Origin: Promethearchaeota archaeon
GTDB lineage: Archaea > Asgardarchaeota > Lokiarchaeia > Sigyniarchaeales > SOKP01
DNA length: 53,103 nt
Reading direction: 5' to 3'
Assembly: GCA_019894885.1 (NCBI GenBank)
Contig: JAGXNP010000001.1
Location: forward strand, 1-53,103
This document shows positions 18,926-33,134 of this stretch, in pieces. Each line of letters starts with the position of its first letter. Within the stretch, counting starts at the first letter, position 1. Both the position numbers and the translations under genes were made by a program. A model generated the notes under the pieces. That model saw nothing but the letters and a program-made list of their open reading frames with translations, was not told the DNA's origin and made no database searches.

Positions 18926-21900
18926 GTGAAAATTATAAAAAATAAAAAAAAAATAACACCATTAATAGCAATTAGTTTATTCATATTGCTTAGCGCATTT
19001 AATATAAGTTCTGGTATAGCAATTCATATGCAAGGTGACGGAGCAACCTTTAACCTTGATAAAGCGGATCCGGTAGGATACGGTGTTTATATTCCAGCAC
19101 CAAATATGTATACTACTATGTCGATAAGTGGGTCAAATCAGGGAGAATTTGTTGCGATGGATTGGCTCGGAGGAATATTACATACAGAAACCGTAAATTA
19201 TCCAGGAGATGATGTAAGCTATATATATCCGAGGTACTTTGAAAATTATGTAATTGATAGTACGACTGACAATGACTATATTAACCCTTGGTCAGCTGAA
19301 TGGCTGAATGTAAGTGCATATGATGCAGAAAGTGATACTTTATCACCTTATACTTTGAATAGTGTGTTTGACTATCATGTCATGGCTGAAGGAAGCGAAT
19401 TAATTGTGCCATTAAATAATTCTTTACCAATGCAAATTGACATAATGATTGATAGTACAGGACCTAAAATATTAAAATTTGATTGGTTAACTGATAATCC
19501 CGCGGGCGTAATGTATGGTTATGAATTAATATCCCCATCAGGAAAAATAGTGATGACAGATTTTCAAACTGCTCAGACTGCAGTTATGGCTTCAATTAGT
19601 GTGTTTAATTATATTGCATTTGTAGCTAATAACATTGGTACATATAGATTATTGGTAACTGCTTCTTATACTCAACCTGCTTATTTAAATTTGAAATTTT
19701 TACAGACTTCCATAACTACCTTGCCTTTAGAAAAATTGACCTTTGGAGGAAATAGTGATGAAAATCCTACTGCACAAGAGATGTGGGATATAGAATGGCA
19801 ATCCAACTGGTTCAAGATTAATGGGAAAAAAGGAGATCTCTATAGATTAGATTTAGGATTAGATTTTAGCGCTATTGCTCCCATGATAGATGCATGGTTG
19901 CCATGTGAAAATAACTATATTTTAGATTCTAGTATTACACCGGGAGTTTACGATCTTTACTTCCCTAACAGTGGTGCTGCATATATTTCTTTCAACGACG
20001 CGACATATGGTATATGGTATAGATATTCGTTATACTTGAGTGAAATTGAAGTTTTAAATTATGATATTGGGGATAGTACAACCAATATAAGAATATCAAG
20101 GGACCAAAGGAAAGCTATAGATTTTACAATAGAGCAGGATTCGTTTGTAAGATTCAACTATACTGAATGGGGCGATGGAAATGCTCAAGTATCTTCAATG
20201 GGAACAACTAACGGTTTTATTTTTAAAGATGCTAAAAAACTTGCCTGTTATGAAGTTTTAAGTCCTCTTGAAACTAAATCAGAAGGTACTATGAATTTCT
20301 ACTACTATTATTTCCCTGCGGGGGAATATGAAGCAAAAATTATCAATGGAAATCCACTTTATGACAGTGTACTACAAATTAGTTCTGAATATGTATCTGA
20401 CGCGAACTCAACAATTCCAATAACTAGTTTATCATATCCTTTAACTAATCCAACATCATCTGTAACTGCTCAATTTGAACCTGATGAATTCTATACTAGT
20501 CTTAAACAGGGTCAATGGTTTGATATTAATATCGCAGAAACCGGTCAATATAGATTTAATTGGTCAATATTTGCTTCTGATAATTTAGCACAAATTCCCA
20601 CTATAGCAAACCCATCGGTTGTTCTTGTGTATAATGGTTCCACAGGAGAATATTACGATTATACTACAAGGTCACATACTTATCTTCAATCGTTCCCTGC
20701 TCTTGATACTCCAAATGATTTTCTCTACATTGCATATCCAAGTAAATGGCATGATATGCACTTTAATATAACCCAATTAGGGACACTTGGTGGCGTAGAT
20801 TCTGGAGTAGATGTCTGGGATGGCGATAGTTGGGATGAATTAGCACAAACATCTGATACTACTGGTGAATTTCAAACTGCTAATGGATCATGGGTTATGA
20901 ATATTTATGGTGACGCTGATTTTGGAGATTGGACAAAAGGCGTAGGAACTACATTCGATCGCAACGGTATTGATGAGGAAATGTATTATTGGTTGAGATT
21001 TGACTGCGATAATGCTTATTCGACTATACCTTATATTGATTTAATAAGTTTATCAAATATAACGATGCGCGGAGATGTAAATTTTGCTCTAGTGAGGGAT
21101 AGCGGGTATGAATATTGTGATTTCTGGACGCCAACTGCTCCATCTAGTATTACGGATATTCTTATAAACCAAGAATCGGGATGGGACTTATTTAGTAATG
21201 AACAATGGCTTTTTGGCGCTACAAGTGATCCCTACATTATAGGATTAGAAGAAGGTAACTATAAGTTATTGGTAATTCCTGAACAATGGTCACATCCAGG
21301 ATCATTAAATATTAGATTTGCTATTGAGGACTATTGGGGATATCATGTTGAGCAATCCCATACAATCGATCAGAATCCTGTTGCCCATTCATGGCAAATC
21401 GGAAATATGGTCAATGTAGGTGATTCAATTTTATATAACTACTCAACTTATCCTTATGATTTAAGTCTTACTTATAACGACACTGAAGTAAGTTGGACAC
21501 TGGGAGGTGAAGCATATATTGCTGTTAAATGCTCTGGAACGCCATATAGTTGGACACAATTAGTCGTTGAAAGTGTAAATATTACTAACTATGAACTTTA
21601 TATATTGCAAGACCTTCCATGGATTAATAATAACGGTCCATACTTAGAAACAAGGTTGATAGATAGTAATATAGGGGATAATAATACTATTGAATTTGGC
21701 GTAATAAGAGACAATTTTACTTTACTCTTTGAAATTCTAGGTGACGGAAGTCCAAACGAAATGGTTACATTAAATATAGGGATAAGACAATATAACACCA
21801 CAGCATTGTATGCCAGTGAAATCACTGCAACATCCACTCCTCCTGGACCAGATCTAGGTCCACTTATATTAACTTTATTGATTGCAATACCCGCAGGTGC

Positions 21901-21967
21901 AGGAGCCGTCGTTGTTGTTTATGTCTTGAAGAAGAAGGGAAAAATTTTAACAAAACATCCAACTTAA
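18926..21967 (+). CDS. Large secreted/surface protein (1013 aa) with an N-terminal signal anchor and a C-terminal TM anchor
   Basis: N-terminus KKKITPLIAISLFILLSAF. The C-terminus is PPGPDLGPLILTLLIAIPAGAGAVVVVYVLKKKGK. It has many N-x-S/T sequons, and I recognised no enzymatic motif. GTG start. Confidence 0.7.
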   Translation: MKIIKNKKKITPLIAISLFILLSAFNISSGIAIHMQGDGATFNLDKADPVGYGVYIPAPNMYTTMSISGSNQGEFVAMDWLGGILHTETVNYPGDDVSYIYPRYFENYVIDSTTDNDYINPWSAEWLNVSAYDAESDTLSPYTLNSVFDYHVMAEGSELIVPLNNSLPMQIDIMIDSTGPKILKFDWLTDNPAGVMYGYELISPSGKIVMTDFQTAQTAVMASISVFNYIAFVANNIGTYRLLVTASYTQPAYLNLKFLQTSITTLPLEKLTFGGNSDENPTAQEMWDIEWQSNWFKINGKKGDLYRLDLGLDFSAIAPMIDAWLPCENNYILDSSITPGVYDLYFPNSGAAYISFNDATYGIWYRYSLYLSEIEVLNYDIGDSTTNIRISRDQRKAIDFTIEQDSFVRFNYTEWGDGNAQVSSMGTTNGFIFKDAKKLACYEVLSPLETKSEGTMNFYYYYFPAGEYEAKIINGNPLYDSVLQISSEYVSDANSTIPITSLSYPLTNPTSSVTAQFEPDEFYTSLKQGQWFDINIAETGQYRFNWSIFASDNLAQIPTIANPSVVLVYNGSTGEYYDYTTRSHTYLQSFPALDTPNDFLYIAYPSKWHDMHFNITQLGTLGGVDSGVDVWDGDSWDELAQTSDTTGEFQTANGSWVMNIYGDADFGDWTKGVGTTFDRNGIDEEMYYWLRFDCDNAYSTIPYIDLISLSNITMRGDVNFALVRDSGYEYCDFWTPTAPSSITDILINQESGWDLFSNEQWLFGATSDPYIIGLEEGNYKLLVIPEQWSHPGSLNIRFAIEDYWGYHVEQSHTIDQNPVAHSWQIGNMVNVGDSILYNYSTYPYDLSLTYNDTEVSWTLGGEAYIAVKCSGTPYSWTQLVVESVNITNYELYILQDLPWINNNGPYLETRLIDSNIGDNNTIEFGVIRDNFTLLFEILGDGSPNEMVTLNIGIRQYNTTALYASEITATSTPPGPDLGPLILTLLIAIPAGAGAVVVVYVLKKKGKILTKHPT

Positions 21968-25450: not shown

Positions 25451-26581
25451 ATGATGTCTGAAACTTTTGAGAACTTTATGATCTTCGGACTAGAAAGTAC
25501 CGGAGAAAAAGTAAGGTTAGATATTTCTGAAGATACCTTTCGGTTGAATAACGGTCAAAAGGTATTAGATTCTAACCAAGTGTTAATAATTGTCAAGGAG
25601 GGGATAAGGAGAATCTACATCTGGAAAGGCGTTAATTCACATGTCAGGAAAAAATTTATAGCCTCTCGGATTGCTGCTGAATTACAAAACGATTTGGTTG
25701 TTGCTGGGCATTTTCATCGGTGCAAAATTATCTCAGTAGACCAAGGAGACGAACCTAACGATTTCTTAAGGGCTTTCGGTTTTACGACAGTTGAATTACC
25801 CGGGCTTCTTGATCGTAATTCACAAGAGTTCAAACAAATTCATTCTATATCTGAAAAAACGGCACCAGAATTAGATGGAAAGAAAGTTCATAGTTGGAAC
25901 GGCCCTCCTCCTTCTTTAAAAGGAAATATAGCTTCTCCAACCATTACTCAACCTACGACGAAAATAAAAAAAGAAGAACTTAAAAAGTCAATTAAACCCT
26001 TCAAAACTGACGAAATGGAAATAATTGAGAAAATAGTTAAAAATAATGTTCCAGTCGATCTAAAAAGACAAAACTTAATCTTAGGTAACTTTCAGATTTT
26101 TGGTGCTGCGATTAAAAAGGCTAAAATATTTGGCAAAGAAGTAGAAGAAGTCAAATGGGAACCAGTGAACTCGCTACCAGAAGGAATAATTGAACTGACT
26201 GATCGCACTCTAAGAATATATATCGATGATACCTCTAAAACTATTGAAGGAATAGAAATTCTCCAAAAACTCGATACTCCTCCAGTTATAGAACCATTGG
26301 TTGAAAAGGACGAAGAAGTAGACTACAATGCTTGGACTGTTAAACAACTAAAAATTTATTGCCAAGAGAACAATATAATAGTGCCTGCATCTTACAGAAA
26401 AGCACAAATTGTAAGTCTCATTAAAAACGGTCCATCCCAAGAATCTATTGAACCAGAATCTAATTATAAGACTTGGACAGTAACGCAACTGAAAGAATAC
26501 TGTAAAAAAAACGATATCAAAGTGATTTCTACATACAGAAAAGCAGATCTACTTAAATTGGTAGAAGAACATCAAAAATAG
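25451..26581 (+). CDS. Gelsolin-fold domain protein with a Pro-rich linker, an uncharacterised middle domain and two C-terminal HeH/SAP-like repeats
   Basis: Residues about 35-110 (VLIIVKEGIRRIYIWKGVNSHVRKKFIASRIAAEL...VDQGDEPNDFLRAFG) follow the gelsolin repeat core pattern. There are two 36-aa repeats, YNAWTVKQLKIYCQENNIIVPASYRKAQIVSLIKNG and YKTWTVTQLKEYCKKNDIKVISTYRKADLLKLVEEH. Confidence 0.7.
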   Translation: MMSETFENFMIFGLESTGEKVRLDISEDTFRLNNGQKVLDSNQVLIIVKEGIRRIYIWKGVNSHVRKKFIASRIAAELQNDLVVAGHFHRCKIISVDQGDEPNDFLRAFGFTTVELPGLLDRNSQEFKQIHSISEKTAPELDGKKVHSWNGPPPSLKGNIASPTITQPTTKIKKEELKKSIKPFKTDEMEIIEKIVKNNVPVDLKRQNLILGNFQIFGAAIKKAKIFGKEVEEVKWEPVNSLPEGIIELTDRTLRIYIDDTSKTIEGIEILQKLDTPPVIEPLVEKDEEVDYNAWTVKQLKIYCQENNIIVPASYRKAQIVSLIKNGPSQESIEPESNYKTWTVTQLKEYCKKNDIKVISTYRKADLLKLVEEHQK

Positions 26582-26620: not shown

Positions 26621-29587
26621 TTAATCCTGAGAAGCGTAGAAATCGTCGAAATTCTCTTGTAATTGATCTATGTATAGTTTTCTCTTTCCAGGAATAACTT
26701 TTTTTGTAAGTATTTTTGCTTTCGTGTAGCAGGTGATTGCTTCTTCGAGCATTCCTAAGTGTTTATAGGACAGAGCTAATTTTAGAAAGGTGTGAAAGGC
26801 GAACCAACCTCTTGGGTTGGCTTCTAAAGCTTGGTTAAATTTCTCGATAGCACCTTTATAATTTTTTGAGTTCATCAATACTTCTCCGTATGTATCATAC
26901 AGGTTAGCGTCGAGAGGATCGAGTTCGATGGCTTTTTCAATTGTCTCAAACGCTTCATCGTATTTTCCGATATTACTCAATGAAATTGATCTATTGTTTA
27001 ATAACCCTGGAGAATCCGGATAAAGGTCTAAGGCTTCGTTAAGAGTCTTGAGCACTTCTAAATCTTTACCCATTTTACAATATGTAAATCCTTTCAGTTG
27101 ATATAACGACTTACGCACCTGTGGAAATTTTTTCATCATCTCATCGATTAAGGCCATTACTTCGCTTCTCATATTATCGTTCGTGAGATATAAGTGAATT
27201 TTTGTAGCATAGTAATCGAAGTGGTCAGGGCTTAATTCAATTGCTTTTTCAATTTCAATTAAAGCCGCTTCAGTTCCATCTGTCTCATTTAAAATATAAC
27301 TATACAGTTGATAATACCTAGACAATTGTTTTTCACTCAGCCCCATTGATATCGCCTTCTCAAATTCCTCAACAAAGAGCTCTTTGTCTACTTTACTCGC
27401 ATCAAAATTATATACAATGTTAAATCCGTGAACTAATCCAGTAATAATATGAGAAATTGGGTGATTTGCGTAATGAAATTTTACTTTGTTGACGATGTCT
27501 AAGGCTTTCTCGAATTTTCCTTGTGCTAAATACGAGAAAGATAGTACCAAATACGCTGCCGTATCAACGCGTGGGTTATGTTTGAGTAAATTGAATTCCA
27601 CTACTTGTTTAATCCAATTTTTACCCTCTTTATAATCATTTGTGATCGAGTATAATAGAGCTTTCATTACAGAGAGTTCTAAGTCCTTAGGATTTGTTTC
27701 AATTAGAGAATTAATAAGTTCCATTGGTTCGTCAATTTTTTTTACACAGCACTCTTTATCTGTTAGGATGCACAGGAATTTAGTTCGTTGGAGCAAAAAA
27801 TGATCAGGATATTCAGCTAATGCTTCTTCAACAACGCCTAAAGCTTTATCGTGATCCAGATTGATTAGTATTTGTGCTTTTTGAGCAATAAGCGACACAT
27901 CGTAAGTCTTGCTTAACCCTGATTCGATGACTTCTAACGCTCTATTGAGTTTGCCCATATAGAAATAGGTTATTGATTGAAATAAATAACCAATATATTC
28001 ATTAGGGTGTTTTTTGATAATTTCTTCTGTAAGTTCTAGCGAATCCTCTAATTCCCCGTTGTAAGTGTAAAATAAATCTTTTAGAAGCAATAACTCGATA
28101 TCGCTTAAATTCTTTAGATGCTCTGTAAGCAAGTCGTTTACTTTAGATAGTTTACCTTTCGCTAATTTACGTTCAATGTTCGTTAAGAATTCTAAATTCA
28201 TAGGAAAATATGTCTTTTTGAACTGAGATGTTCTAATAAAGTTAATTTTAGTAAAATAGAATATGTCCAAGGTATCGAAAATTCTGTTGTGTAAGAAATA
28301 ATACGCCTCGCTATCGGCTGATTTATTCATCGTACTTGCCGTTTCAGAGGTATCAAAACTTTGAATTACTTCGAATACATTTTGAAAGGCGATCCCCTTT
28401 ATTTTATCTGTATGGTTGATCAAACTCTTCTCGCTCTCAAATTTATATGCCAAATGCTCGATATACTCAGGAATGAACTTTCTTAGAGCTGGTTTCAAAT
28501 CATCGTGAAACAAATTACTACACATATCGCTCGTTATATCTTCAAGTAACTCGTTGATATCTGGTATGTGATATTGAACGCCACTCGCTTTCTGGAATTT
28601 ACTCAAATAAGTAAACTTCCTAATGTAATCCTCGATAATTACATTGAGCATTTTCTCTAAACGCTCTTCTGCCTGAATATAGTAGGTGTATTTATCGCTT
28701 GCATTTAATTTAAAGAAATGTATCGGATATATGTTATCCTCAACGATCTTCTCGATAAAGAAGTTAAGTGTAGTTAGCTTTATATCATATTCTAAAGCAA
28801 AATCTTTAGCAGTAATGTATTTAGGGTATTGATCCGGGTGATTAATAGCGAGATAAAGCAAAATTTTATCAAAATCCACCTCGTCGGATAAGGTGCTTTC
28901 AACTTTAGTATAATCCAACCTAAGCACAATGTTCAAAAATCTGTATTTAATCCCATCATCATCGATATTATAATCGTTAAAAAACTTCGATACTTTGTCT
29001 GTTATTACCTCAACCCTTTTACTCTCTTCGTCTAATATCGACTGGCGGTCCAAATCGTATTTTTTTAATATATTGAAATATTCTAATTCACCTGAATTAG
29101 TAATTTGATATTCACGGTTATCTTTTTCAACGAAATTTTTATCTAACAAAAGATTCAAATTTTTTGATAATGAAGATTGATTGATATTAAGTGGATCCTC
29201 AAGAAAATCGGACCATTTACAATGGTGGTTATTATATAACATCCAAAGAATCCAATCATCGTAATTTCTCTTATTTGTAATCGTCTCAGGTGGGTAGTTC
29301 AATGTTTTTTCTAGCGCATCTTTAACTTGAATTTCAGCATACTGTTGACGACCTTCAGGAGTAATTTTGTATTCGCCCTTCTTCTCCTTCTCAATAAATC
29401 CATTACTAATTAAGAGGGTAAGATATTTCGACAAAGTTGCGTTACTTATGTTTACAGGATCCGAATTAAAATCAGACCATGAACAATGGTTGTTATTATA
29501 GAGCATCCAGAGTATAATATGCTCAAAATCTTTGTTGATTTTCATAGGGGTAATTATACCTTCAGGTGGAAATTTTACTATACTCAT
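26621..29587 (-). CDS. 988-aa protein with two tandem N-terminal winged-helix-like modules, an unknown central region and a long C-terminal TPR array
   Basis: Duplicated module ILWMLYNN(N/H)HC(S/K)WSDF...LSK(Y/N)L.LL....F(I/V)EK...Y.IT..G at about 29072-29518. The C-terminal half is full of 34-aa TPR-like units (for example YDEAFETIEKAIELDPLDANLYDTYGEVLMNSKNYKGAIEKFNQALEANP). No Walker A motif was seen. Confidence 0.8.
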   Translation of the reverse strand: MSIVKFPPEGIITPMKINKDFEHIILWMLYNNNHCSWSDFNSDPVNISNATLSKYLTLLISNGFIEKEKKGEYKITPEGRQQYAEIQVKDALEKTLNYPPETITNKRNYDDWILWMLYNNHHCKWSDFLEDPLNINQSSLSKNLNLLLDKNFVEKDNREYQITNSGELEYFNILKKYDLDRQSILDEESKRVEVITDKVSKFFNDYNIDDDGIKYRFLNIVLRLDYTKVESTLSDEVDFDKILLYLAINHPDQYPKYITAKDFALEYDIKLTTLNFFIEKIVEDNIYPIHFFKLNASDKYTYYIQAEERLEKMLNVIIEDYIRKFTYLSKFQKASGVQYHIPDINELLEDITSDMCSNLFHDDLKPALRKFIPEYIEHLAYKFESEKSLINHTDKIKGIAFQNVFEVIQSFDTSETASTMNKSADSEAYYFLHNRIFDTLDIFYFTKINFIRTSQFKKTYFPMNLEFLTNIERKLAKGKLSKVNDLLTEHLKNLSDIELLLLKDLFYTYNGELEDSLELTEEIIKKHPNEYIGYLFQSITYFYMGKLNRALEVIESGLSKTYDVSLIAQKAQILINLDHDKALGVVEEALAEYPDHFLLQRTKFLCILTDKECCVKKIDEPMELINSLIETNPKDLELSVMKALLYSITNDYKEGKNWIKQVVEFNLLKHNPRVDTAAYLVLSFSYLAQGKFEKALDIVNKVKFHYANHPISHIITGLVHGFNIVYNFDASKVDKELFVEEFEKAISMGLSEKQLSRYYQLYSYILNETDGTEAALIEIEKAIELSPDHFDYYATKIHLYLTNDNMRSEVMALIDEMMKKFPQVRKSLYQLKGFTYCKMGKDLEVLKTLNEALDLYPDSPGLLNNRSISLSNIGKYDEAFETIEKAIELDPLDANLYDTYGEVLMNSKNYKGAIEKFNQALEANPRGWFAFHTFLKLALSYKHLGMLEEAITCYTKAKILTKKVIPGKRKLYIDQLQENFDDFYASQD

Positions 29588-29639
29588 AGTTAAATGATAT
29601 TCGAAAAACTTTATAAATCTTATGTTCGCACTATACTTC

Positions 29640-29657
29640 GAAGTTCGTTCGAACTTC
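29640..29657. promoter_or_regulatory. Perfect palindrome GAAGTTCG-TT-CGAACTTC in the divergent intergenic region (candidate operator)
   Basis: 8-bp inverted arms with a 2-nt spacer, about 55 nt upstream of the wHTH-TPR start codon and about 90 nt upstream of the first small ORF. Confidence 0.25.
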
Positions 29658-29747
29658 CTAAAGTTAAACTATATAAGAACTGCGAATTTACTAAAATTAA
29701 CAATAAAAAAAAGAACCTAAAAAAAAAAAGGAAAGAAGTGAAAAAAA

Positions 29748-30035
29748 ATGGCACAAGCGGCAGAAAAAAAAACCATTTGCAAAAAACACTTGAAGTGCGA
29801 CCTTCCAGCTTTAACCCAGAATCTAGCACCTGAGGGAATTCAATCTCAGGTGCTGGTTCTAACCACCGAAGGAGAGCGGGTTGAATCAAGTTTACGAACA
29901 AACAAGCTTTTGAGAGAGTTCAATAAAATTAGATATAACGCGAGGATTTCGGAAGAGAAAGTCTTGATAAGCAAGTATAAGTGGCAAGTAGACGCAAAGC
30001 TTCTTGGAGTTCGCAATTCCATGTTAATTTTCTAA
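29748..30035 (+). CDS. Candidate 95-codon ORF of unknown function (may instead be non-coding RNA)
   Basis: ORF track. It is preceded by a ~55-nt A-rich tract. It contains a 10-bp GC-rich hairpin and is locally richer in G+C than its surroundings. I recognised no family. Confidence 0.3.
   Translation: MAQAAEKKTICKKHLKCDLPALTQNLAPEGIQSQVLVLTTEGERVESSLRTNKLLREFNKIRYNARISEEKVLISKYKWQVDAKLLGVRNSMLIF
29825..29854 (+). other. Perfect 10-bp stem-loop AGCACCTGAG-N10-CTCAGGTGCT
   Basis: Read directly from the sequence. The stem is GC-rich in an AT-rich context, and it is followed by GGTTCTAACCACCGAAGGAGAGCGGGTTGAATC, which can also fold. Confidence 0.5.
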
Positions 30036-30119
30036 TCAAAAAAAAATTAAATTTTAAAACCAGGAAAAGAAAAAAGAAAGAATAAAAAACCAAAAATAAC
30101 AGAAAAGAGGTATAGCAAA

Positions 30120-30191
30120 ATGAGAAGAGAAGAAGAAGATGTAAGAGTAGTTGAAGGATTTAATCCGTCAAACTTAGTTTTTAGATTTTAA
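30120..30191 (+). CDS. Candidate 23-codon ORF (MRREEEDVRVVEGFNPSNLVFRF)
   Basis: ATG is preceded by GAGGT 11 nt upstream and an ~85-nt A-rich tract. It is too short for any homology judgement. Confidence 0.2.
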   Translation: MRREEEDVRVVEGFNPSNLVFRF

Positions 30192-30281
30192 TAACAATTT
30201 TTTTAAATTTTTGAATAAAACGCGCCAAAAATAAACTAAAAAAAGAACAAAAATAAACCAAAAAAAACGAGGTAAAAAAGT

Positions 30282-30359
30282 ATGGAAGCACACGAGAAAA
30301 GAACGATAATAATATTAAACGCGGGCTGTATTCCTGACCGTTTTGAAGTGTATTTGTAA
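30282..30359 (+). CDS. Candidate 25-codon ORF (MEAHEKRTIIILNAGCIPDRFEVYL)
   Basis: ATG is preceded by GAGGT 10 nt upstream and a ~65-nt A-rich tract. It is followed by a hairpin and a T7 run. Confidence 0.2.
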   Translation: MEAHEKRTIIILNAGCIPDRFEVYL

Positions 30360-30374
30360 ATACTGCATTTTTTT
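30350..30374 (+). terminator. Short hairpin (GTATTT-GT-AAATAC) followed by a T7 run, a candidate terminator for the small-ORF unit
   Basis: Read directly from the sequence. It overlaps the stop codon of the third small ORF. Confidence 0.3.
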
Positions 30375-30451
30375 ATTAATTATAATCATTAAACATTTGC
30401 GATTTAACGATAAATAATAAACATTCTTATATTAAAGAGAGGAATAATACT

Positions 30452-31021
30452 ATGAAAGAAGTATTATGTTTTATATATGATGGATTTGCTGATTTTGAAA
30501 CCGTGCTAACTTGTTCAGCCTTAAATGAACATGATAATTACAGAGTAACTTATATAGCATATGAGAAAACACCTGTTTATAGTTCTGGAGGATTAAAAAT
30601 TAATCCAGATAAAACAGTTTCGGAAATTGATGGTATAAAAGACGTTGAAGGTCTAATAATACCTGGGGGAGGCACAAGAATACTTAAACCAGAACTTGAA
30701 AAATTAATTAAACGATTAAATGAAGAAAAAAAATTGTTAGCTGCAATTTGTGCAGGACCAGAATTTCTTGCCAAAACTGGTATTTTAAACGGTAAAAAAT
30801 ATACAGCCTCTGCAGAACCCCAATCATATGAAGAGAAAAATGAGACAGATCCTTTTCCAAGAGACTCTTATGTAGAAACAAGAGTAATTCAAGATGGAAA
30901 TATAATCACTGCTAAGGGTCACGCATTCACAGACTTTGCTCTTAAAATTTGGGATTGGTATAATTTGTATGATAACGAGAAAGAAAAAGAAGATTTAAGA
31001 AAGGATTTTACTCCAGAGTAA
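30452..31021 (+). CDS. DJ-1/PfpI family protein (class I glutamine amidotransferase-like fold)
   Basis: Nucleophile-elbow context LLAAICAGPEFLAKTGILNGKKYT. Confidence 0.85.
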   Translation: MKEVLCFIYDGFADFETVLTCSALNEHDNYRVTYIAYEKTPVYSSGGLKINPDKTVSEIDGIKDVEGLIIPGGGTRILKPELEKLIKRLNEEKKLLAAICAGPEFLAKTGILNGKKYTASAEPQSYEEKNETDPFPRDSYVETRVIQDGNIITAKGHAFTDFALKIWDWYNLYDNEKEKEDLRKDFTPE

Positions 31022-32657: not shown

Positions 32658-33134
32658 TTACCAACAGCTTGGATCAAAAAATTCATTATACTTTTTCAAC
32701 CAATTAAAAATCGTGTATTTTGAGTAATCTTCAGTTATTTCTTCTCCGATTTGAATATCTCGTTGAGCTACTGAGCGTAAGCCAGTTCCATCTTCAGGTA
32801 ATCCCGAGTTAGGTTTAAACGAATGGTTAACATATCTATTATTGTCCAAAATGAAAATTAAAGCGTCGATATCACGCTCACAATATGAATAGTTGAGTAA
32901 TATAATCATAAAATTTTCGATTTGCGGCGATTTAATGGAGGTATCAAGTATAATGAATTGATCTTTAGTAATAATCATCACATCTTGCTCACGAGCATGC
33001 CACCAAACTGTTCCCTTAGGAATTAATTTTTTTGCAAACAATCCGAACCCATGAATTTTACTTGGTTTTACTACTGCATATTCTTCAATAGGATTAATTG
33101 AACTAGGATTGTATCGTATTACTATATCGGTCAT
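32658..33134 (-). CDS. SET-domain protein (putative protein lysine methyltransferase)
   Basis: HGFGLFA (GxG), RYVNHSFKPN (NHSxxPN) and GEEITEDY (ELxxDY) motifs in the canonical order. Confidence 0.8.
   Translation of the reverse strand: MTDIVIRYNPSSINPIEEYAVVKPSKIHGFGLFAKKLIPKGTVWWHAREQDVMIITKDQFIILDTSIKSPQIENFMIILLNYSYCERDIDALIFILDNNRYVNHSFKPNSGLPEDGTGLRSVAQRDIQIGEEITEDYSKYTIFNWLKKYNEFFDPSCW

Follow-up and report, generated by a model that had tools for sequence, protein, structure and literature searches.

To our knowledge, transcription factors that sense peptides through a tetratricopeptide repeat (TPR) domain are known only from Bacillota and their mobile elements, and no receptor with a ribosomally made peptide ligand is known in Archaea. 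The RRNPPA family (Rap, NprR, PlcR, PrgX, and AimR) was described for Bacillota and mobile elements (PMC12700828). Here, we analyzed a stretch of 53,103 nucleotides (nt) from a Promethearchaeota archaeon (assembly GCA_019894885.1, contig JAGXNP010000001.1, positions 1 to 53,103), referred to below as the window, in which a gene for a winged-helix/TPR protein of 988 amino acids (aa), a putative DNA-binding receptor or regulator, occupies the minus strand (26621..29587). Three short open reading frames (ORFs) are read divergently from the plus strand: ORF1 (29748..30035, 95 aa), ORF2 (30120..30191, 23 aa, MRREEEDVRVVEGFNPSNLVFRF), and ORF3 (30282..30359, 25 aa, MEAHEKRTIIILNAGCIPDRFEVYL), whose starts are located 161, 533, and 695 nt from the start of the large gene. 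The ORF list placed all four genes where an earlier annotation made from the letters alone (hereafter, the sequence-only reading) had put them. That reading had proposed an archaeal analogue of RRNPP systems, and the proposal was supported in part, by a recurrent layout, coding conservation of the small genes, and an operator, but homology to RRNPP or Rgg proteins had to be rejected.

The comparison of related loci, at the sequence level, defines an Asgard-specific module made of a winged-helix/TPR regulator, a divergent ORF1 of 70–95 aa, and one to three peptide genes of 21–29 codons. This module is apparently analogous to RRNPP and Rgg systems, independently evolved, and undescribed; a full-text literature search of incomplete coverage found neither this architecture nor RRNPP-like systems of archaea described, and an earlier description is possible. 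We favor, with a probability of about 0.55, the reading that it is an autoregulated transcription-factor module whose small proteins would be ligands of the TPR domain, acting preferably inside the cell. The analogy of layout with RRNPP and Rgg stands, and a signaling role of the peptides is hypothetical.

As in RRNPPA systems, a cytoplasmic DNA-binding domain is joined to a TPR sensor, very short peptide genes (here ORF2 and ORF3) are adjacent to the putative receptor, and several paralogous pairs are possible per genome. In contrast to these systems, to which no relation in sequence or fold was found, the Asgard protein matched only generic TPR and winged helix-turn-helix (wHTH) families in Pfam, NCBIfam, and PADLOC; it carries three archaeal-type winged helices and not an XRE-type HTH, its repeat region spans ~560 aa compared with 5–9 TPRs, and its length is ~988 aa compared with 300–450 aa. 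The Asgard peptides are also devoid of signal sequences, the 70–95-aa partner ORF1 is an additional component, and among named homologues the module was found in Asgard archaea only, whereas RRNPPA is described for Bacillota and mobile elements.

With the Rgg/short hydrophobic peptide (SHP) systems, the locus shares peptide genes of 20–30 codons that are divergent from the regulator gene and share its promoter region, the lack of a Sec signal, and an inverted-repeat operator in the shared promoter. SHPs are hydrophobic, exported by PptAB, and re-imported by Opp/Ami, whereas the Asgard peptides are charged and built on an I/L/V-Asn-aromatic core, and their genes lack a linked transporter. The Asgard regulator is moreover unrelated, with no Pfam or NCBIfam match to the combination of HTH_XRE and the Rgg C-terminal repeat domain, and ORF1 sits between the regulator and the peptide genes.

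The small genes and their recurrence in Asgard archaea

Homologues of the 988-aa protein numbered 830 at E ≤ 1e-5; the full-length ones listed were mostly 980–1,015 aa long, and each one with a named source came from an Asgard lineage. They comprised a close clade (60–90% identity) and a broad set (41–45%) from Loki-, Hermod-, Hod-, Thor-, and Odin-type metagenome-assembled genomes (MAGs). A profile of the N-terminal 440 aa retrieved 221 clusters among 1.84 billion representatives. As far as these searches indicate, the regulator family is small and restricted to Asgard archaea, with two or more paralogues per genome in at least 13 genomes. In one subgroup, with lengths of ~770–1000 aa (P0278–P0320), the match to the N-terminal profile did not begin before about position 100; these proteins therefore lack winged helix 1 and begin at winged helix 2.

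Layouts were compared in a close set of 24 metagenome loci, whose orthologues are 76–90% identical and of which those with enough upstream sequence were aligned, and in a distant set of 79 loci from species-representative genomes. Module loci came from Loki/Promethearchaeota, Hermod-, Hod-, Thor-, and Odinarchaeota MAGs. A hidden Markov model of the ORF1 family gave 68 matches in 895 kb, 59 of which were divergent and located 80–400 nt from a regulator start. Three further loci fitted this layout after correction of mis-set match starts, giving 62 of the 85 loci that had at least 500 nt upstream of the regulator. At the loci numbered L013, L035, L020, and L027, the match start lay 0.9–1.2 kb too early, and the real starts showed the usual divergent layout. 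Peptide-like ORFs preceded by a Shine-Dalgarno (SD) motif were found in at least 44 of 67 ORF1-linked regions. Orthologues and distant paralogues of the large gene are thus recurrently flanked by short ORFs, a check that the sequence-only reading had proposed, and the refutation tests that were run on its terms did not overturn the idea. Reverse sampling gave a concordant picture for two of three ORF1 homologues taken from the database, which adjoined a 978- or 987-aa HTH/TPR gene; the third (L108) retained the operator and a peptide gene. The recurrence of the ORFs, the SD spacing, and the palindrome described below in dozens of independent loci places the layout beyond chance.

Proteins of the ORF1 family are 67–95 aa long, annotated as hypothetical, and without a Pfam domain. 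A large database contained 80 matches, those with a named source all being from Asgard lineages. Their common pattern consists of M[AV]Q[AV]xEK, a hydrophobic strand (IIIIP in the family, PQVLV in the clade of the window), a K/E-rich linker, and a C-terminal AKxHEExIxIxKxK..D..YG..F. In the window, an SD-like GAAGTG (29735-29740, plus strand) lies 7 nt before the ORF1 ATG; its counterparts elsewhere are GAAGTGA, GAGTGA, or AGGTTA. ORF2 and ORF3 are each preceded by GAGGT (30107-30111 and 30269-30273, plus strand) with an 8-nt spacer to the ATG, and in relatives of ORF2 both motif and spacing are kept. The sequence-only reading had seen these two GAGGT motifs correctly but had placed them 10–11 nt before the ATG; the spacer is 8 nt, or 13 nt when counted from the first G.

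Where it is retained in close relatives, the upstream region aligns at 72–83% identity. Within it, ORF1 and ORF3 together accumulated no indel in 363 nt, compared with 32 events in 334 nt of three spacers. ORF1 was indel-free at 73% nucleotide identity, with a ratio of nonsynonymous to synonymous substitution rates (dN/dS; pooled Nei-Gojobori over close relatives) of 0.58. ORF2 (23–29 codons, 15 variants) was always intact, with a dN/dS of 0.60 and the clade motif ..(E/G)FNPxxL(V/I)x(R/K)(F/Y)-stop. ORF3 (14 variants, clade motif ME..EKRxIIIxNxGYIPDRFDM) was indel-free, with a dN/dS of 0.40 and a diversity of 0.34 at the third codon position compared with 0.16–0.18 at positions 1 and 2. The frame, start, stop, and SD of the short ORFs are kept, and conservation is at the amino-acid level with synonymous-biased substitution, which argues against the earlier caution that they may be non-coding. 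Judged by these alignments, ORF1, ORF2, and ORF3 are real conserved coding genes.

The opposite view, that the two ORFs of about 24 codons are untranslated and that the conserved intergenic sequence is a non-coding RNA or a promoter/terminator signal, can point to spacers (72–81%) that are about as conserved as the ORFs and to a strong RNA hairpin within ORF1 (29823..29856, plus strand, 13-bp stem, −22.6 kcal/mol, z −5.95). Across 14 members of the clade, pairing holds in 97% of the cells of this hairpin. Four pairs show one-sided changes, all of which yield G-U, and several of these replace an amino acid (Ala>Val, Pro>Leu, Pro>Ser). Because double compensatory changes are absent, constraints on RNA structure and on protein are inseparable in this hairpin. 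Taken in its entirety, the ORF1 region had an unremarkable fold (z −1.44), and Rfam returned nothing relevant, either over the whole window at the gathering threshold or over 29400-30600 at E ≤ 10. The ORFs, whose length changes are in frame, are intact again in paralogues of 35–45% identity with unalignable nucleotides, and the SD fixed at 8 nt, the third-position bias of ORF3, and amino-acid motifs common across clades also speak against this view, which we consider very improbable. A non-coding RNA in the 864-nt gap was rejected on the same Rfam and fold results and on a tRNA scan in which none was found.

The peptides of the class to which ORF2 and ORF3 belong are 21–29 aa long and share a charged N-terminus, an I/L/V strand, an Asn, and an aromatic C-terminal tail. 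Similar peptides adjoin regulators that are only 35–45% identical to that of the window; distant examples downstream of ORF1 are MNKNERIRVFDIIIIQNPAYRAY, MRVKRMKKKTRLIIITNEGGRYHSRYITY, MYKKSLERRELIIIKNMIYRIW, and MKTNRRNKEKQVKNIKNYPTGYNPQYFRY. With a peptide motif that is descriptive and was set after inspection of the data, the density of SD-preceded peptide-like ORFs was 2.0 per kb downstream of ORF1 compared with 0.012 per kb elsewhere, and most of the cases elsewhere likewise adjoin a regulator gene. Paralogues in one genome carry differing peptides (e.g., L055 and L081; L040 and L077). The coexistence of such regulator/peptide pairs suggests pair-specific recognition.

In agreement with the sequence-only reading, the short ORFs have no signal peptide: their N-termini are charged, and they contain no hydrophobic h-region or export segment. 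No conserved exporter, processing protease, or oligopeptide importer was found in the neighborhoods of the examined loci. Cell-cell signaling of the RRNPP/Rgg type would require that ORF2 and ORF3, perhaps along with part of ORF1, be exported without Sec, re-imported, and sensed by the TPR domain, paralogues serving as private channels. The Rgg/SHP-like layout, with peptide genes of 20–30 codons divergent from a DNA-binding TPR receptor and several pairs per genome, fits this scheme, and bacterial SHPs and leaderless communication peptides likewise do without Sec signals (a class cited in PMC12700828). We nevertheless regard it as distinctly unlikely, given the charged, non-hydrophobic peptides, the lack of conserved transport and processing genes nearby, a receptor that is non-homologous to RRNPP proteins, the absence of copies on the viral contigs searched, and a family that looks vertically inherited, length-conserved, and not fast-evolving. 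Action inside the cell, as in the reading that we favor, is preferred given peptides that lack an export signal and a module that lacks a linked transporter. A mobile-element or viral origin was rejected, since the viral contigs searched contained no relatives of the module. PADLOC gave weak matches of the large protein to generic winged-helix and TPR models and none for the small ORFs, and a defense system or toxin-antitoxin was rejected on that basis.

An operator-like array and putative promoters of separate units

The region between the divergent genes contains an operator-like array, ACTTC-GAAGT-tcgttcga-ACTTC (29635..29657), located between two divergent TATA boxes. The palindrome at 29640-29657 (GAAGTTCGTTCGAACTTC) that had been recognized in the sequence-only reading is part of it and is identical in most close relatives; two of them diverge, one by a single change (L030) and the other by a shorter palindrome (L036). 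Inverted GAAGT/ACTTC arrays were present in 43 of 59 intergenic regions between the TPR gene and ORF1, at 5.67 per kb compared with a background of 0.057 per kb, and half-site pentamers numbered 3–4 per intergenic region compared with an expected 0.52. In distant clades, the array takes the form ACTTC-N14-ACTTC-N4-GAAGT-N2-GAAGT-N6-TATA of ORF1. That an almost invariant half-site matches almost invariant winged helices 1 and 2 is the chief reason for regarding the 988-aa protein as the putative occupant of the array.

On the regulator side, a TATA-like box of presumed promoter function (TTTATAAA, 29610..29617, minus strand) lies 23–30 nt upstream of the regulator ATG and is kept in relatives; this distance therefore predicts a leaderless or very short-leader mRNA. 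The putative TATA box of the ORF1 unit (CTATATAAG, 29669..29677, plus strand), 12 nt downstream of the operator, is kept in close relatives and replaced by ctatatat or ctataaat in distant clades.

A T7 run after ORF2 (30198-30204, plus strand), within a T-rich block kept in relatives, is a likely signal for archaeal termination, perhaps doubling as a piece of the promoter region of the next unit. The ORF3 unit ends with another T7 run (30368-30374, plus strand), where relatives also keep a T-run. The sequence-only reading had described this end as a hairpin plus a T7 run; the T7 run is real, but the hairpin (−3.5 kcal/mol, z −0.67) does not rise above chance. A bacterial-type intrinsic terminator after ORF3 is unsupported, as no terminator-like site scored and the T-runs alone are conserved. 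From this order of signals, each small gene seems to form its own unit, in which a T-run and then a TATA-like A/T block precede an A-rich, SD-bearing leader, and the ORF is closed by a further T-run. The leaders of the three small genes (29690-29747, 30040-30119, and 30205-30281) are extremely A-rich, with runs of 8–11 A, and share the pattern AACCA(A/G)AAAA...GAGGT. A 79-aa ORF on the plus strand (29594-29833) and a 93-aa ORF on the minus strand (29620-29901) are spurious translations of the A-rich/T-rich leader, and ORF scans of related loci turned up no relatives of either.

The large protein and a proposed mechanism

Pfam recognized two wHTH stretches at the N-terminus of the 988-aa protein (HTH_45 at 1.6e-12, HTH_34, MarR, and HVO_A0261_N) and many TPR families over about aa 500–960 (TPR_2 at 3.3e-28). 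Winged helix 1 (aa 21–90; 29318..29527, minus strand) was identified by Pfam (HTH_45, HTH_34, MarR), NCBIfam, the structural model, and Foldseek. Winged helix 2 (aa 109–175; 29063..29263, minus strand), matched by HVO_A0261_N and HTH_45, shows the strongest conservation within the family, with a mean pairwise identity of 0.67 across 49 homologues and invariant W115, N119, N120, W125, S126, F128, I135, N136, L140, and S141. Over the whole protein, mean pairwise identity is 0.57–0.67 in the winged-helix half compared with 0.38–0.53 in the TPR half.

An AlphaFold model built from 49 sequences (mean predicted local distance difference test, pLDDT, 82.7) shows winged helix 1 (modeled at aa 21–75), winged helix 2 (aa 109–162), a long helix, winged helix 3, further helices, and an uninterrupted superhelix over about aa 430–988. 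The sequence-only reading had found the two N-terminal winged helices but missed the third (aa 236–305 in AlphaFold). This winged-helix-like domain (aa 236–308; 28664..28882, minus strand) has an H-H-H-E-E topology in both AlphaFold models, with a pLDDT of ~85–92. The same reading had left ~350 aa unassigned, noting that they lack a Walker A; the motif is indeed absent, but the region consists of winged helix 3 and helical linkers. Its claim of more than 400 aa of TPR repeats was substantiated by Pfam and by the modeled superhelix (aa ~431–988; 26624..28297, minus strand), a putative ligand-binding domain with paired helices over aa 434–987 and ~15 or more TPR-like repeats.

Neither Walker A nor Walker B motifs were found in the large protein, nor were NTPase matches in Pfam, and a STAND NTPase or enzyme in the central region was excluded, this part being modeled as the third winged helix and helices. 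The fold of the large protein is neither that of an NTPase nor that of an enzyme. AfsR joins an N-terminal winged-helix DNA-binding domain to a helical-repeat/TPR domain (PMC10936776), and SARP/AfsR and HilA-type factors resemble the Asgard protein in combining these two elements in one transcription factor. They differ in having an OmpR-type wHTH with BTAD, to which AfsR adds a NOD ATPase, and in having no peptide genes; the P-loop NTPase that lies between the DNA-binding and TPR domains of STAND/NOD-TPR proteins (AfsR, MalT) is missing from the Asgard protein, and its winged helices are Sso10a/Sta1/MarR-like.

The best sequence and fold matches for winged helices 1 and 2 were Sso10a, Sta1, Lrs14, and AspA, which, unlike the Asgard protein, are single-domain proteins of 90–130 aa without a TPR domain or peptide-gene partners. 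NCBIfam listed Sso10a_fam (2e-13), Sta1, Lrs14, and ArsR for the winged helices; the bit scores were 50.1 for Sso10a_fam (cut-off 60), 37 for Sta1 (80), and 31.6 for Lrs14 (90), so that these domains are, on the profile scores, related folds and not members of those families. Sequence profiles against the PDB matched the winged-helix region to AspA, SloR, and HxlR. The model of aa 1–440 retrieved, all weakly, the MarR family, AspA, the PhiH1 repressor, Sso10a, PadR, IdeR, and multi-winged-helix proteins in Foldseek. With the whole model, Foldseek returned only generic TPR superhelices from the PDB (TTC7B, TPR subunits of the anaphase-promoting complex (APC/C), OGT, LbcA, and Tom71), and no chain of Rap, NprR, PlcR, PrgX, or AimR was among the best 50 matches.

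These fold matches also allow the large protein to be read as a protein scaffold or adaptor, with winged helices employed as in ESCRT-II, cullins, and Pol III C82, ORF1 and the peptides being its subunits, clients, or substrates and another factor occupying the GAAGT array. Eukaryote-type TPR scaffolds (TTC7B, APC/C subunits, OGT, Ski3, Ctr9) are among the matches, the N-terminal model also resembles the multi-winged-helix protein binders UFL1/DDRGK1, Pol III C82, and SelB-C, and one clade has, behind this gene, genes for a 216–220-aa protein of no assigned function and for Roadblock/LC7, with small GTPases near some loci. We consider this explanation unlikely, as the best sequence matches of winged helices 1 and 2 are DNA-binding archaeal regulators or chromatin proteins, the operator motif tracks the gene family across clades, exactly within the divergent promoter, and conservation within the protein peaks in the winged-helix part, paralleled by an equally conserved half-site. 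A link to ESCRT-II winged-helix/TPR proteins was rejected, as an Asgard ESCRT survey describes other architectures.

Winged helices also serve as recognition elements (RREs) in the biosynthesis of ribosomally synthesized and post-translationally modified peptides (RiPPs), and the sizes, C-terminal aromatics, and beta-strand core of the small proteins recall precursors of the PqqA and MftA type. Under a RiPP-like scheme, the short ORFs would encode the precursors, whose leader would be bound at its I/L/V strand by the winged helices. Such a system is hardly credible here: no radical-SAM, YcaO, cyclase, protease, or transporter gene, nor any other enzyme gene, is conserved beside the module across loci, where neighbors vary, the large protein lacks an enzyme fold, and its winged helices match DNA-binding families and not PqqD in Pfam. 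A radical-SAM gene was seen near L106/L107 only.

In the favored reading of an autoregulated module, the N-terminal winged helices would bind the GAAGT/ACTTC array between the divergent TATA boxes, abutting the B recognition element and TATA box of the ORF1 unit, and would thereby set transcription of the small-protein genes and probably that of the regulator. The small proteins, translated from strong GAGGT sites, would bind the variable TPR superhelix through their beta-strand and the aromatic C-terminal tail before the stop codon, and ligand binding would alter the oligomeric state or DNA affinity of the regulator, closing a feedback loop. The resemblance of the TPR superhelix to peptide- or tail-binding scaffolds (APC/C TPR subunits, Tom71, OGT) is in favor of this scheme. 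Tail-clamping TPRs (Hop/CHIP-EEVD, PEX5-SKL, the APC3-IR tail, the Tom70/71-Hsp70 tail) are comparable in that the fold matches include APC/C subunits and tail-bound Tom71 and that the Asgard small proteins end in conserved aromatic tails at the stop codon; the parallel is one of mechanism and by analogy only, as clamp residues were not identified in the Asgard protein. DNA binding by the 988-aa protein, binding of peptides to its TPR domain, and the direction of regulation are all predictions from sequence.

Several points weigh against the favored reading. Winged helices can mediate protein-protein contacts as well, and every match to a named winged-helix family fell below the curated NCBIfam cut-off. 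About one quarter of the loci lack ORF1 and about one third lack a recognizable peptide, some loci carrying Zn-ribbon mini-proteins or a small membrane protein instead, and in L108 the cassette is not adjacent to a regulator gene. The dN/dS values of 0.4–0.6 indicate moderate constraint only, and the post hoc peptide motif tempers the enrichment downstream of ORF1. One half-site is common to all paralogues, which leaves DNA specificity between paralogues unexplained. Finally, the locus sequence was found in DNA metagenome runs only (permafrost and others).

A bolder and clearly tentative possibility is that the module represents an ancient, independent Asgard family of orthogonal pairs, each regulator sensing its own 21–29-aa peptide and 70–95-aa partner. 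If so, it would be the first genetically encoded peptide-ligand regulatory system, possibly for cell-cell communication, in Archaea, situated in the lineage closest to eukaryotes and using TPR-tail recognition like that of eukaryotic TPR scaffolds. Even if the peptides act inside the cell only, the module would represent a new type of archaeal transcription factor controlled by small proteins. It defines an operator motif and two unannotated gene classes, the ORF1 family and peptides of fewer than 30 codons that gene callers mostly miss, and may provide a testable entry to gene regulation, and possibly signaling, in the closest prokaryotic relatives of eukaryotes.

Variant loci and genomic setting

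At L002, L003, L034 (88% identical orthologues), and L027, a deletion of ~500 nt, corresponding approximately to 29738-30237 of the window, removes ORF1 and ORF2; the operator is kept, and peptide genes of the ORF3 and ORF4 types come immediately after it. Some strains can therefore dispense with ORF1. The relatives L004, L010, L012, L015, and L022 have a fourth peptide gene after ORF3, of the MKRKEKNAKTILNPTGYHISALRF type. In the window, a DJ-1/PfpI gene (30452-31021) occupies this position, and ORF4-like sequence was found nowhere in the window.

Several distant clades have Zn-ribbon mini-proteins of 32–46 aa (e.g., MKKRIRINCMKCGKEIKLNFIDSRAVCKTCGR), some with a terminal ..NFDF, either beside the peptides or in their place; these were located downstream of ORF1 at L037, L038, L042, L044, L045, L050, L052, L056, L057, L067, L072, L074, and L108. 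A membrane protein of 110–122 aa stands in place of the peptides at L040, L059, L069, L070, and L075. At L108 (GCA_019058425.1), ORF1, a peptide gene, and two Zn-ribbon genes with a ACTTCACGTGAAGT operator lie beside genes for leucine-rich repeat (LRR) proteins. A regulator copy lies on a different contig of this assembly (L048), its upstream flank being free of ORF1-family genes, and this split could reflect a rearrangement with regulation in trans. L084 and L102 have tandem regulator copies, one of them partial, with ORF1-family genes between them.

In a clade of 43–44% identity (L104, L106/L107, L109–L111), the genes for the 216–220-aa protein and Roadblock/LC7 mentioned above come after the regulator gene on its own strand, a synteny that the window copy does not share. 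Genes for small Ras/Arf-like GTPases were seen near L089, L097, L103, and L109.

The nearest sequencing runs were permafrost metagenomes, and four runs of unclear kind were multi-strain DNA-like assemblies. The genes of the window, among them the gelsolin-type neighbor described below, and the homologues of the locus, named Promethearchaeota, Lokiarchaeia, and similar, indicate an Asgard archaeon of the Loki/Promethearchaeota type. The window has a G+C content of ~31% and contains no regulator paralogue elsewhere, its other large ORFs being an FtsX/MacB permease, a CARDB/DUF11 surface protein, and a 1013-aa ORF (18926-21967, plus strand) with no Pfam match. A SET-domain protein of 158 aa is encoded at 32658-33134 on the minus strand. 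The convergent neighbor of the regulator gene (25451-26581, plus strand) encodes a 376-aa protein with a weak N-terminal gelsolin-repeat match, just under the Pfam cut-off, and two C-terminal motifs of the SAP/HeH/Ish1 type, a domain combination that is eukaryote-like.

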